Assembly: GCF_029227855.1 (NCBI RefSeq)
Contig: NZ_CP074356.1
DNA: 64,000 nucleotides
Source of the DNA: Escherichia coli
GTDB lineage: Bacteria; Pseudomonadota; Gammaproteobacteria; Enterobacterales; Enterobacteriaceae
Strand: one strand, 5' to 3'
The notes under the pieces are model-generated. The model did not search any database. It was not told the DNA's origin and saw only the letters and a list, made by a program, of their open reading frames with translations. How positions within the stretch are numbered: position 1 is the first letter of the stretch; every line of letters starts with the position of its first letter. Of this stretch, positions 28,841 through 39,139 are shown in pieces. The position numbers and the translations under genes were made by a program.

Positions 28841-28933
28841 GGTGAGGTGGCCGAGAGGCTGAAGGCGCTCCCCTGCTAAGGGAGTATGCGGTCAAAAGCT
28901 GCATCCGGGGTTCGAATCCCCGCCTCACCGCCA
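28841..28933 (+). tRNA. serV: tRNA-Ser (anticodon GCT)
   Basis: 93-nt cloverleaf with long variable arm, anticodon loop ctGCTaa, 3' CCA. Confidence 0.9.
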
Positions 28934-28936
28934 TTT

Positions 28937-29013
28937 GCATCCGTAGCTCAGCTGGATAGAGTACTCGGCTACGAACCGAGCGGTCGGAGGTTCGAATCCT
29001 CCCGGATGCACCA
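28937..29013 (+). tRNA. argV: tRNA-Arg (anticodon ACG), copy 1
   Basis: gcatccgtagctcagctggatag...ggttcgaatcctcccggatgcacca; anticodon loop ctACGaa; symbol by position. Confidence 0.9.
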
Positions 29014-29127
29014 TATTCTACGTACTTTCAGCGATGAAGGTATGGAAGAGGTGGCGGTAATAACCGCAGGCACCAGGGAGGATAACGTTGCTTTAGCAAC
29101 GGCCCGAAGGGCGAGCCGCAAGGCGAG

Positions 29128-29147
29128 TAATCCTCCCGGATGCACCA
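29128..29147 (+). other. Orphan tRNA-Arg 3'-end fragment (taatcctcccggatgcacca)
   Basis: Matches the last ~17 nt plus CCA of the adjacent Arg tRNAs without the upstream tRNA body. Confidence 0.5.
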
Positions 29148-29211
29148 TCTCTTACTTGATACGGCTTTAGTAGCGGTATCAAAAAATCTGAAGTAAAGTA
29201 AGTTTCCCGAT

Positions 29212-29288
29212 GCATCCGTAGCTCAGCTGGATAGAGTACTCGGCTACGAACCGAGCGGTCGGAGGTTCGAATCCTCCCGGATGCACCA
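29212..29288 (+). tRNA. argY: tRNA-Arg (ACG), copy 2
   Basis: Same sequence as copy 1. Confidence 0.9.
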
Positions 29289-29350
29289 TCTCTTACTTGA
29301 TATGGCTTTAGCAGCGGTATCAATATCAGCAGTAAAATAAATTTCCCGAT

Positions 29351-29427
29351 GCATCCGTAGCTCAGCTGGATAGAGTACTCGGCTACGAACCGAGCGGTCG
29401 GAGGTTCGAATCCTCCCGGATGCACCA
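29351..29427 (+). tRNA. argZ: tRNA-Arg (ACG), copy 3
   Basis: Same sequence as copy 1. Confidence 0.9.
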
Positions 29428-29529
29428 TATTCTCCGTAATCATCAGTGATGATGGTTAAGATGGATTTTCTTATTTGATATGGCTTTAGTAGCGGTATCA
29501 ATATCAGCAGTAAAATAAGTTTTCCCGAT

Positions 29530-29606
29530 GCATCCGTAGCTCAGCTGGATAGAGTACTCGGCTACGAACCGAGCGGTCGGAGGTTCGAATCCTCCCGGAT
29601 GCACCA
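29530..29606 (+). tRNA. argQ: tRNA-Arg (ACG), copy 4
   Basis: Same sequence as copy 1. Confidence 0.9.
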
Positions 29607-30320: not shown

Positions 30321-30745
30321 GTGAAGCATTATCGCTTTTCTCGTTGTTTGCCAGTAGTTTTCTCAGCGCTACACTATTACCCGGCAACTCCGAAGTCGTG
30401 CTGGTGGCAATGTTGCTTTCCGGGATCAGTCATCCCTGGGTTTTAGTTTTAACAGCAACAATGGGTAATAGCCTTGGAGGGTTAACTAACGTTATCCTTG
30501 GGCGTTTCTTTCCATTGCGTAAAACATCGCGCTGGCAAGAGAAAGCTACCGGCTGGCTGAAACGCTATGGTGCAGTCACGCTATTATTAAGCTGGATGCC
30601 CGTGGTTGGCGATTTACTGTGTCTGTTAGCGGGATGGATGCGCATCTCCTGGGGGCCGGTAATCTTTTTTTTGTGCCTTGGTAAAGCGTTACGCTATGTT
30701 GCAGTTGCAGCAGCGACCGTTCAGGGCATGATGTGGTGGCACTAA
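30317..30745 (+). CDS. yqaA: DedA/SNARE-associated family inner membrane protein
   Basis: 142 aa hydrophobic protein; overlaps yqaB stop. Confidence 0.85.
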   Translation: MSEALSLFSLFASSFLSATLLPGNSEVVLVAMLLSGISHPWVLVLTATMGNSLGGLTNVILGRFFPLRKTSRWQEKATGWLKRYGAVTLLLSWMPVVGDLLCLLAGWMRISWGPVIFFLCLGKALRYVAVAAATVQGMMWWH

Positions 30746-30790
30746 TTGTAGGCCTGCACATATGGTCACCATTACAGTTATGCTAATTAA

Positions 30791-32374
<1,584 letters not shown>

Positions 32375-32382
32375 CAGAAAAG

Positions 32383-32455
32383 AAAAAGGCCACTCGTGAG
32401 TGGCCAAAATTTCATCTCTGAATTCAGGGATGATGATAACAAATGCGCGTCTTTC
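32383..32455 (-). ncRNA. micA: MicA (SraD) Hfq-dependent sRNA
   Basis: Reverse complement reads gaaagacgcgcatttgttatcatcatccctgaattcagagatgaaattttggccactcacgagtggccttttt, ending in an intrinsic terminator. Confidence 0.85.
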
Positions 32456-32523
32456 ATATACTCAGACTCGCCTGGGAAGAAAGAGTTCAGAAAATTTTTA
32501 AAAAAATTACCGGAGGTGGCTAA

Positions 32524-33039
32524 ATGCCGTTGTTAGATAGCTTCACAGTCGATCATACCCGGATGGAAGCGCCTGCAGTTCGGGTGGCGAAAACAATGAA
32601 CACCCCGCATGGCGACGCAATCACCGTGTTCGATCTGCGCTTCTGCGTGCCGAACAAAGAAGTGATGCCAGAAAGAGGGATCCATACCCTGGAGCACCTG
32701 TTTGCTGGTTTTATGCGTAACCATCTTAACGGTAATGGTGTAGAGATTATCGATATCTCGCCAATGGGCTGCCGCACCGGTTTTTATATGAGTCTGATTG
32801 GTACGCCAGATGAGCAGCGTGTCGCTGATGCCTGGAAAGCGGCAATGGAAGACGTGCTGAAAGTGCAGGATCAGAATCAGATCCCGGAACTGAACGTCTA
32901 CCAGTGTGGCACTTACCAGATGCACTCGTTGCAGGAAGCGCAGGATATTGCGCGTAGCATTCTGGAACGTGACGTACGCATCAACAGCAACGAAGAACTG
33001 GCGCTGCCGAAAGAGAAGTTGCAGGAACTGCACATCTAG
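32524..33039 (+). CDS. luxS: S-ribosylhomocysteine lyase (AI-2 synthase)
   Basis: 171 aa, HxxEH metal motif (HTLEHLFAG). Confidence 0.96.
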
Positions 33040-33071
33040 TCAGTAAACTATCTTCACAATTAATTGAAAAA

Positions 33072-33093
33072 AGCCAGTTCAAATGAACTGGCT
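33072..33093. terminator. Hairpin (agccagttc-aaatg-aactggct) between convergent luxS and emrB; bidirectional terminator candidate
   Basis: 9-bp stem with flanking A/T runs. Confidence 0.55.
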
Positions 33094-33102
33094 TAGTTGT
33101 AC

Positions 33103-34641
33103 TTAGTGCGCACCGCCTCCGCCGCCACCTGCGCCAAATGGCGGTTTAGCAAACCACACCAGCCCCAGCAAGACGAGGAATATCCCGGCTGACATCCAGA
33201 AGATCTCATTGGCGGAAATAATCAGCCCCTGATTGGTGATCTGCTGGGCAATCCAGCCTGATGCCTGCTGTTGCGTCATCCCAAGCCCTTCCAGTTGACT
33301 ATACATCGCCTGGGCATTCGGGTTGAACGGGTTTACCGACTCAGTCAACTGCGCATGGTGCATCGACTCGCGGTTGGTCCACATGGTGGTGGTGATGGAT
33401 GTGCCGATAGACCCCGCCAGCGTTCGCGTAAAGTTAGAGAGGCTCGATGCCGCCGCCAGTCGTTCCGGTGGCAAACCAGACAGCGTAATGGTGGTCAGCG
33501 GCATAAAGAAGCAGGCCACCGCAAAACCCTGGATAAACTGCGGCCAGGCCGACGCGCCAAAATCCATACCTGGTTCAAAGGTATAGGCACGCCAGTAGAA
33601 GCAGACGGCATACATAATAAAGCTGAAGGTTACCAGCCGCCGCATATCCAGTTTGTGCGCGAAGCGGCCGATAATCGGCGACAGGATCACCGGAATAATC
33701 CCTACCGGCGCAGAGGCCAAACCTGCCCAGGTCGCCGTGTAACCGTAGACCTCCTGCAACAACTGCGGCAGCAGAACAATCGCGCCGAAGTAGAGCATAT
33801 ACGCGAGGCTGATACACAAGCAGCCGATGGTGAAGTTGCGCGACTTAAACAACGACAGATCGACTATCGGGTTATCGTCGGTCAGCTCCCAGACAATCAG
33901 GAAGCAGATAGCCACCACCGCCACCACGGTAAGGATGATAATTTCCTGTGATGAAAACCAGTCCAGCTCTTTACCGCGGTCGAGCATAATCTGCAGGCTG
34001 CCTATACCAATAACCAGCAGTGCCAGCCCCACGGCATCAATCCGCCGCCGTTCGGTGCGGGTTTCGCGTCCGCGCAGGGTTTGCAGTGTCATCAACACCA
34101 CCGCCACGCCAATTGGCACGTTGATGAAGAATATCCAGCCCCAGTGGTAATTATCGCTGATATAACCGCCGAGGATCGGGCCGCAAATTGGCGCGACAAT
34201 CACCGTCATCGACCACAACGCCAGCGCGATCGAGCGTTTGGCTGGCGGGTAGTTATTCAGCAATAGACTTTGCGAAAGCGGGATCAACGGTCCGGCGACA
34301 ATCCCCTGAATCACGCGGAAGAAGATCAGCATATTCAGGCTGCTGGAGACACCACACGCCCACGACGCAATAGCAAAGGCGATGGTTGACCAGAGGAACA
34401 GTTTCACTTCCCCGACGCGCTTTGCCAGCCAGCCGGTAAGCGGGATCGAGATGGCATTCGCTACCCCGAAGGAAGTGATTACCCACGTTCCCTGGCTGAG
34501 CGATGAGCCCAGATTCCCGGCGATAGTGGGGATCGCCACGTTAGCAATGGTGGAGTCCAGCACCTGCATGAATGTCGCCAGTGACAGCGCAATCGTCATA
34601 ATGACCAGTTGCGCGCCTTCCAGCGGTTTTTGCTGTTGCAT
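33103..34641 (-). CDS. emrB: Multidrug efflux MFS transporter permease EmrB
   Basis: 14-TMS MFS; start chosen at MQQQKPLEGA. Confidence 0.93.
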   Translation of the reverse strand: MQQQKPLEGAQLVIMTIALSLATFMQVLDSTIANVAIPTIAGNLGSSLSQGTWVITSFGVANAISIPLTGWLAKRVGEVKLFLWSTIAFAIASWACGVSSSLNMLIFFRVIQGIVAGPLIPLSQSLLLNNYPPAKRSIALALWSMTVIVAPICGPILGGYISDNYHWGWIFFINVPIGVAVVLMTLQTLRGRETRTERRRIDAVGLALLVIGIGSLQIMLDRGKELDWFSSQEIIILTVVAVVAICFLIVWELTDDNPIVDLSLFKSRNFTIGCLCISLAYMLYFGAIVLLPQLLQEVYGYTATWAGLASAPVGIIPVILSPIIGRFAHKLDMRRLVTFSFIMYAVCFYWRAYTFEPGMDFGASAWPQFIQGFAVACFFMPLTTITLSGLPPERLAAASSLSNFTRTLAGSIGTSITTTMWTNRESMHHAQLTESVNPFNPNAQAMYSQLEGLGMTQQQASGWIAQQITNQGLIISANEIFWMSAGIFLVLLGLVWFAKPPFGAGGGGGGAH

Positions 34642-39048: not shown

Positions 39049-39129
39049 TGTAGGCATGATAAGACGCGCCAGCGTCGCATCAGGCATTGTATACAGAGTG
39101 GCGGATGCGGCGAAAACACCTTATCCGCC
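39049..39129. repeat. BIME: two REP elements in inverted orientation
   Basis: First REP is the reverse complement of the canonical gcctgatgcgacgctggcgcgtcttatcatgcctac; second is gcggatgcggcgaaaacaccttatccgc. Confidence 0.7.
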
Positions 39130-39139
39130 CGAATAAAAA

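Follow-up and report, generated by a model that had tools for sequence, protein, structure and literature searches.

MicA in its usual setting between gshA and luxS of Escherichia coli, and a shared hairpin with the features of an intrinsic terminator on one strand

Introduction

The small RNA MicA of Escherichia coli K-12 (SraD, psrA10; b4442; Rfam RF00078) has been studied for more than 20 years, and its position between gshA and luxS, its promoter, its targets and its overlap with luxS transcripts are all published. Its induction by sigma-E, its dependence on Hfq, the repression of OmpA and its action on phoP and other targets have been reviewed (PMC4618604), and the dependence on sigma-E was demonstrated experimentally for the K-12 promoter (Udekwu and Wagner 2007, PMC1851643; review PMC4618604), which is active at a low level in the absence of envelope stress (PMC4618604, PMC1851643). 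The opposite strand is also transcribed. Transcripts of luxS that start at the sigma-S-dependent site P1 exceed 800 nt and must cross the hairpin at the end of micA (Udekwu 2010, PMC2956633), and long luxS transcripts are converted to the shortest species, R3, in a process that depends on MicA and RNase III (PMC2956633). The overlap of R3 with the 5' end of MicA amounts to 14 nt (Udekwu 2010) or 15 nt (De Lay and Gottesman 2009), both as given in PMC2956633. According to Udekwu 2010 (PMC2956633), no polycistronic gshA-luxS mRNA is known. By our reading, gshA transcripts must thus stop or be cut in the vicinity of micA.

A second group of described systems that bears on this arrangement comprises the collision-dependent bidirectional terminators found at convergent gene pairs of E. 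coli, which do not resemble intrinsic terminators (bioRxiv 10.1101/2022.10.23.513370). As in the case of micA and gshA, these elements consist of a hairpin between convergent units that falls short of a strong intrinsic terminator in one direction or both (Ju et al. 2019; ynaJ-uspE in bioRxiv 10.1101/2022.10.23.513370).

Here we have analysed a stretch of 64,000 nucleotides of E. coli DNA (the window), in which an initial annotation, prepared from the sequence alone, had recognised MicA and had proposed that its terminator hairpin would be shared with gshA and could act in both directions. Since MicA and its features have long been published, the locus holds little discovery value in itself. 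It illustrates that a hairpin located between convergent genes need not be a two-way terminator.

Results and discussion

The window contains a micA gene identical to that of K-12

The sequence originates from an E. coli chromosome. A segment of 401 bp (32250-32650) has matches of 100% identity in many complete E. coli genomes and was found in 5423 of 5426 of them, and the 121 bp comprising the micA gene and its promoter are likewise carried by 5423 of the 5426. When the full window was scanned against Rfam 15 at gathering thresholds, the MicA model RF00078 matched positions 32384-32455 on the minus strand with 83.9 bits (E 1.4e-11, model positions 1-75 of 75, not truncated), compared to a gathering score of 41 bits. 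The minus-strand sequence of 32383-32455, GAAAGACGCGCAUUUGUUAUCAUCAUCCCUGAAUUCAGAGAUGAAAUUUUGGCCACUCACGAGUGGCCUUUUU, is base-for-base identical to K-12 micA (b4442, NC_000913.3 2814802..2814874), which aligns exactly to window positions 32455..32383. In the region encompassing gshA and luxS (30700-33150), 26 differences separate the window strain from K-12, none of which is located within 32256-32822. The correspondence to the K-12 gene thus includes the sequence of 32383-32455 and its flanks, the strand, the neighbours gshA and luxS, the sigma-E promoter sequence, the ompA-pairing seed and the terminator, without a single difference within the sRNA.

Based on these results, we assign 32383-32455 (minus strand) with high confidence to micA, the gene of the sigma-E-dependent, Hfq-binding E. 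coli sRNA MicA (SraD). The covariance match and the identity to b4442 bear out its placement on the minus strand between gshA and luxS by the initial annotation, which had named the alignment to the Rfam model as the appropriate check and whose coordinates reproduce the K-12 annotation to the base; a 73-nt sRNA was in this way recognised exactly from raw sequence alone. The identification is correct, ordinary and already known, and concerns a familiar sRNA in its usual gshA/luxS setting. That the match arose by chance or marks a degenerate copy of MicA without function, in favour of which we found no point, is ruled out for practical purposes by the full-length covariance match at twice the gathering score, by the identity of gene and promoter to the experimentally studied K-12 locus, and by its near-universal presence in E. 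coli and conservation across Enterobacterales. The curated K-12 record lists the gene, and the corresponding region (32375-32495) carries no annotation of micA ('none') in the pipeline-annotated RefSeq E. coli genomes that were sampled, so that scans of the sequence add annotation value.

The MicA RNA starts with the G at 32455 and ends at 32383 according to the K-12 annotation (73 nt). In Term-seq experiments on strain MG1655, its 3' end was found at K-12 2814877(+), equivalent to window position 32380, in all three of the conditions investigated (Adams et al. 2021, PMC7815308, supplementary file 1). This end is located three bases past the annotated one and defines a gene of 76 nt (32380..32455, minus strand), a length that was also obtained in a separate RNA-seq study (Romero et al. 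2014, PMC4681348 supplement).

Structure, promoter and target pairing of MicA

The predicted fold of MicA consists of two hairpins preceded by an open 5' region and has an energy of -20.5 kcal/mol (z -2.98), a stability that was reached by none of 200 shuffled sequences. Stem-loop 1 (nt 23-44, 32412..32433, minus strand) is found in the minimum free energy (MFE) fold, in the Rfam consensus structure and in an RNAalifold consensus of related sequences described below. It is followed by the A/U-rich linker AAUUUU (nt 45-50, 32406..32411, minus strand), which is unpaired in both the MFE fold and the RNAalifold consensus, and by the terminator hairpin GGCCACU-CACG-AGUGGCC (nt 51-68, 32388..32405), which contains a 7-bp stem and the 4-nt loop CACG. 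The sequence following the stem on the minus strand reads TTTTTCTTTT in the DNA and gives rise to the U-run UUUUUCUUUU (32378..32387), within which the MicA RNA ends. The locus thus displays a complete terminator module, with a GC-rich stem of 7 bp, a loop of 4 nt, the tail UUUUUCUUUU and the AAUUUU linker upstream, and the assertion that MicA has its own terminator, consisting of a hairpin and a T-run on the minus strand, was confirmed by a consensus terminator scan. The AAUUUU linker together with the U-tail presumably constitutes the Hfq-binding module of MicA.

Upstream of the gene, a promoter of the sigma-E type is found at 32462..32488 on the minus strand, with a -35 element GAACTC (32483-32488), a spacer of 16 nt and a -10 element TCTGA (32462-32466) that is separated by 6 nt from the G at +1. 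The -35 element is preceded by an A/T-rich stretch. At the 5' end of the RNA, a single-stranded seed (nt 8-24, 32432..32448, minus strand) pairs with the translation-initiation region of ompA. RNAduplex calculations of MicA nt 1-28 against K-12 ompA from -45 to +20 yield an interaction of -23.1 kcal/mol, in which nt 8-24 pair with about -21 to -6 of the mRNA, including the GAGG Shine-Dalgarno sequence, and equally strong pairing was obtained for 3 of 1000 shuffled seeds. This calculation of the seed against the initiation region replaces an initial one that used the whole molecule against the ompA leader, which had returned an unrealistic interaction of 65 nt that was barely above shuffled controls.

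Our computations cover those parts of the MicA mechanism that are visible in the sequence; the mechanism itself has been established for the identical K-12 gene. Upon envelope stress, active sigma-E would initiate transcription of the minus strand at the G at 32455, and the resulting RNA would end in the U-run past the GGCCACU/AGUGGCC hairpin at 32380-32383. Nucleotides 8-24 would then pair with the ribosome-binding region of the ompA mRNA and, according to the literature, also with phoP, thereby blocking translation and promoting decay of the target.

Conservation of the locus across Enterobacterales

To place the locus in a wider context, species-representative genomes were scanned with the seed ACGCGCATTTNTTATCATCATC, which returned at least 120 loci. 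Those listed originate from Escherichia, Citrobacter, Enterobacter, Klebsiella, Yersinia, Serratia, Pantoea, Erwinia, Dickeya, Pectobacterium, Edwardsiella, Hafnia and other genera, and the same MicA RNA was seen at all of them. The organization of the locus recurs among the matches listed: a convergent GshA homologue is present at 113 of 115 evaluable loci, with the window included (for the two others there was no gshA match in the DNA searched), and a LuxS homologue is located upstream of micA at 114 of 115, at a distance of 67-179 nt from the MicA +1 (68 in the window). The terminator stem is separated from the gshA stop codon by 8-27 nt at 112 of 113 loci among the matches listed, with a median of 13 nt, which is the value found in the window. 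Upstream of the gene, the promoter motif tgAACT ... GTCTgA.TATaTG is kept at fixed spacing in 108 distinct sequences among these matches.

An RNAalifold analysis of 32 diverse Enterobacterales sequences among the matches listed resulted in a consensus of two hairpins with 14 pairs, most of which are invariant. Compensatory changes were observed at two pairs, the innermost of each hairpin. In stem-loop 1 this is a change from GC to AU, and in the terminator, whose stem GGCCAC/GUGGCC is invariant in the same 32 sequences, the seventh pair covaries between AU, UA and GC. The first 27 columns of this alignment are essentially invariant, 21 of them being fixed by the search pattern. Because the loci were chosen by an exact match to the seed, its conservation is partly circular and offers no independent evidence; promoter, hairpins and synteny had no part in the selection.

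The hairpin shared with gshA lacks a U-tract in the gshA direction

On the plus strand, micA is approached by gshA (glutamate-cysteine ligase, 30818..32374), which is convergent with the sRNA gene. The reading frame identified in the ORF list, and annotated by RefSeq in identical DNA, starts with a TTG codon at 30818 and ends with the stop codon TGA at 32372-32374, and its 518 aa match the length of gshA in K-12 and RefSeq. The hairpin (32388-32405, ggccactcgtgagtggcc in the DNA) is the sole one in the very short region following this stop codon, and for this reason it is physically shared by the two genes, in line with what had been proposed from sequence: it forms in MicA as well as in RNA transcribed in the gshA direction. 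Its distance from gshA, previously given as 9 bp after the stop, has to be corrected, since the stem starts at 32388, 13 nt past the stop codon (32375-32387). The smaller number probably stems from the annotated end of the sRNA gene at 32383, which is the ninth base past the stop codon and leaves 8 nt in between, with 5 nt remaining before the stop in case of the Term-seq end.

A stable, GC-rich hairpin thus resides between the convergent gshA and micA, with calculated energies of -12.2 and -12.8 kcal/mol on the two strands (z about -4), the latter value referring to the plus strand. The consensus terminator scan called this hairpin on the minus strand only. In the gshA direction the stem is not followed by a U-tract: it is succeeded by AAAAUUUCAU, and the corresponding tail, AAAATTTCAT, contains 3 T in 8 positions. 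At least 5 T in 8 positions past the stem were found in this direction at 1 of 114 related loci among the matches listed. The tail in the gshA direction begins with AAAAUUU, the reverse complement of the AAUUUU linker; being complementary to the linker and to stem-loop 1 of MicA, its sequence is constrained by the sRNA. This clear asymmetry between the strands is kept at nearly all of the Enterobacterales loci sampled among the matches listed.

Published 3' ends agree with this asymmetry. In the Term-seq tables covering three growth conditions (PMC7815308), MicA ends 8 nt past its stem, and there is no gshA-strand 3' end a few nucleotides past the stem. The gshA-strand ends that are listed are instead located at 32396 (K-12 2814861(-); LB, OD 0.4, 34,625 reads; supplementary file 1) and at 32343 (K-12 2814914(-); LB, OD 2.0, 305,886 reads; supplementary files 1 and 3), and none is listed here for the M63 condition (PMC7815308). 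The first of these, classified by the authors as 'primary' 3' end of gshA (Adams 2021, PMC7815308), coincides with the centre of the hairpin loop, and the second resides in the gshA coding region, 45 nt before the stem. The format of the tables, with the 3' end as base 51 of 61, was checked with the entry for the luxS terminator, which maps to window position 33098, 4 nt past its stem. A further Term-seq resource makes no reference to micA or gshA.

Lacking a U-tract in gshA RNA, the hairpin does not qualify as a canonical intrinsic terminator of this gene. The suggestion of a bidirectional terminator therefore holds for the MicA strand, and fails in the gshA direction as far as a canonical intrinsic terminator is concerned, with neither U-tract nor 3' end past the stem and with luxS P1 transcripts that read through; a canonical bidirectional intrinsic terminator is not supported. 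In the gshA direction, we infer that the hairpin does no more than make the polymerase pause, stabilise the RNA or bring about a weak and leaky stop, and that most plus-strand 3' ends in its vicinity are products of processing.

Transcripts of luxS that cross or overlap micA

The gene luxS (S-ribosylhomocysteine lyase, 171 aa; 32524..33039, plus strand; ORF list and RefSeq), whose 5' leader is antisense to MicA, starts 68 nt beyond the MicA +1. Its P1 start site, the sigma-S-dependent G at -332 from the AUG, is located inside gshA at 32192 (plus strand; PMC2956633). This coordinate was transferred from K-12, to which the window is identical at 32192. P1 is the sole luxS promoter with reporter support and is found 263 bp to the other side of the MicA +1, and the RNA that it produces is antisense to the whole of MicA. 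In contrast to this distal site, the proximal 5' end of luxS transcripts, that of R3, maps to 32441..32442 (plus strand) inside micA, as calculated from the overlap stated in PMC2956633. The initial annotation had described the 5' end of MicA as divergent from and close to the luxS promoter, which is near the truth in so far as the proximal 5' end is close, but R3 overlaps with MicA by its 14-15 nt and P1 is found 263 bp away in gshA. With the nearest mapped luxS 5' end inside micA, the two genes are in a head-to-head overlap and do not simply diverge from a common spacer. Moreover, since micA is located between two plus-strand genes, any plus-strand RNA that crosses it is a perfect antisense partner. 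The 3' tail of gshA and the luxS P1 leader (from 32192) would both be such partners of MicA.

A sigma-70-like sequence ATGATA-18-TATACT at 32433-32462 (plus strand) was considered as luxS promoter and set aside. It is a single match compared to 1.3 expected from shuffled sequences, and it predicts a start near 32469 that fits no published luxS 5' end. A luxS fragment from -84 to +6 that contains this match showed no promoter activity (Udekwu 2010, PMC2956633). By our own reading, the fragment begins at about the 5' end of R3, so that a promoter further upstream inside micA could still exist.

Origin of the 3' ends on the gshA strand

We consider it quite possible, although somewhat short of probable, that both gshA-strand ends are products of processing, in which MicA would pair with the gshA tail or the P1 leader, RNase III would cut the duplex and 3' exonucleases would trim the upstream product to the next stable helix. 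A published precedent exists in the shortening of long luxS transcripts, which depends on MicA and RNase III (PMC2956633), and the positions of the ends are consistent with such a process: 32396 is located 17 bp into the 76-bp duplex between MicA and its antisense RNA (32380-32455), and 32343 is found 5 nt past a helix of 11 bp (-19.0 kcal/mol) that is formed with the P1 5' end. The end at 32343 is observed at OD 2.0, when the activity of P1 and the amount of the MicA-dependent product both rise (Udekwu 2010, PMC2956633). However, the link of the two ends to MicA or RNase III is drawn from our own distance and overhang arguments, which are loose, and 32396 could equally mark a polymerase that has paused or become arrested, or an artefact of the library at the centre of a palindrome. 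This end is found at the exact centre of dyad symmetry and in exponential phase only, as could result from a cut of the MicA:antisense duplex by RNase III, from a paused polymerase or from an artefact of library preparation on a palindrome.

Less likely, in our estimate, is a reading where the hairpin is a working bidirectional terminator, which would stop MicA by hairpin and U-run and gshA by a non-canonical route. The latter would involve pausing induced by the hairpin, extended by pairing of the upstream A-tract with the downstream UUUC, head-on collision with polymerases transcribing micA, or both. The geometry of the locus is suitable, with convergent gshA and micA flanking the hairpin across the short gap of 8-27 nt that is kept at 112 of 113 loci among the matches listed. 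The hairpin has the same stability on either strand, and on the plus strand GAAA/UUUC pairing can lengthen it (-12.8 kcal/mol). The 'primary' gshA-strand 3' end maps inside this hairpin, and a polycistronic gshA-luxS message is unreported (PMC2956633). Finally, bidirectional terminators of E. coli that are driven by collision are devoid of intrinsic features (bioRxiv 10.1101/2022.10.23.513370), and the missing U-tract is thus compatible with a collision mechanism.

Several observations stand against this second reading. A U-tract on the plus strand is absent here and at 113 of 114 related loci among the matches listed, and the plus-strand end resides in the loop instead of 5-9 nt past the stem, where it would be expected. 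The end at 32396 appears in one of three growth conditions only, and luxS P1 RNAs traverse the hairpin to give mRNAs of more than 800 nt (PMC2956633). Since transcription of micA is low without envelope stress, collisions between polymerases would be rare in unstressed cells. The comparison with described collision-type terminators also reveals differences, as the micA hairpin is in one direction the textbook intrinsic terminator of a 76-nt sRNA and, unlike in those systems, the plus-strand 3' ends at micA are not located just past the hairpin and the luxS P1 RNA reads through.

Published data indicate that the hairpin is leaky on both strands, as seen in the luxS P1 transcripts on the plus strand and suggested by a Rho region located downstream on the minus strand. 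This region of Rho-dependent termination on the MicA strand was assigned to K-12 2815245(+) (Adams 2021, PMC7815308, supplementary file 2), which corresponds to window position ~32012 (minus strand), about 370 nt past the MicA terminator. It could reflect a degree of read-through past the MicA terminator or, alternatively, an antisense promoter inside gshA.

A candidate RNA of about 152 nt in the gshA 3' coding region

The P1 start at 32192 and the 3' end found at OD 2.0 at 32343 flank a helix of 11 bp, formed by GGUAUUGGCGG and CCGCUGAUACC (32192-32202 with 32328-32338; -19.0 kcal/mol), past which a 3' tail of 5 nt remains. Among 1404 positions in gshA, no second helix of the same geometry reaches -19.0 kcal/mol, and none does so among 18,244 positions sampled in the window on both strands. 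Both arms are identical to K-12.

These features might reflect a discrete and abundant stationary-phase RNA of ~152 nt (32192-32343, plus strand), which would start at the sigma-S-dependent P1 site and result from cleavage of the long P1 leader, perhaps at its duplex with MicA, followed by trimming, although we regard its existence as doubtful. This RNA would perhaps represent the upstream fragment that remains, after trimming, from the processing of the P1 leader. In the main text of Adams et al. (PMC7815308) we came across no such RNA, and the observation may be new. If true, a second stable RNA, perhaps with a role in regulation or as a sponge, would arise from the micA locus, and the 'gshA 3' ends' would originate as side products of processing guided by MicA and not of termination. 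Covariation in the 11-bp helix was not found across genera, with 6-8 of the 11 pairs being kept outside Escherichia, and as the helix decays there, conservation gives the candidate no backing. The fold of the entire segment 32192-32343 is not unusually stable (z -1.61), the end-to-end helix alone standing out. The loss of the helix outside Escherichia and the ordinary stability of the fold argue against a conserved function of the ~152-nt RNA.

Other features of the window

About 700 bp from the micA hairpin, a second one is found between the convergent luxS and emrB (33071-33094; 10 bp, about -15 kcal/mol), which is called as terminator-like on both strands in the consensus scan. As for its counterpart at micA, this hairpin is GC-rich and common to two convergent genes, but unlike the former it is followed by a T-run on the emrB strand and by AGTTGTACTT on the luxS strand. 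A luxS-strand 3' end was mapped 4 nt past the stem, at window position 33098 (PMC7815308). The luxS/emrB hairpin is the better candidate for a bidirectional terminator and displays what is missing from the micA hairpin on the plus strand.

The Rfam scan also identified naRNA4 (nucleoid-associated ncRNA 4, a REP-type repeat) at 39053-39130 on the minus strand, with 71 bits compared to a threshold of 59.5. Upstream of yqaA and gshA, a cluster of tRNA genes on the plus strand (28841-29606) contains tRNA-Ser(GCU) followed by four copies of tRNA-Arg(ACG). An additional tRNA-Arg(TCG) proposed by ARAGORN at 28957-29028 (minus strand) is probably a false antisense call, because it overlaps with the first of the plus-strand tRNA-Arg(ACG) genes and has no counterpart in Rfam. 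A lone tRNA with the anticodon CAT at 61503-61578 (plus strand) was classified as tRNA-Met by ARAGORN; judging from the K-12 map, it may instead be a tRNA-Ile2 of the ileY type, which is read as Ile after lysidine modification.
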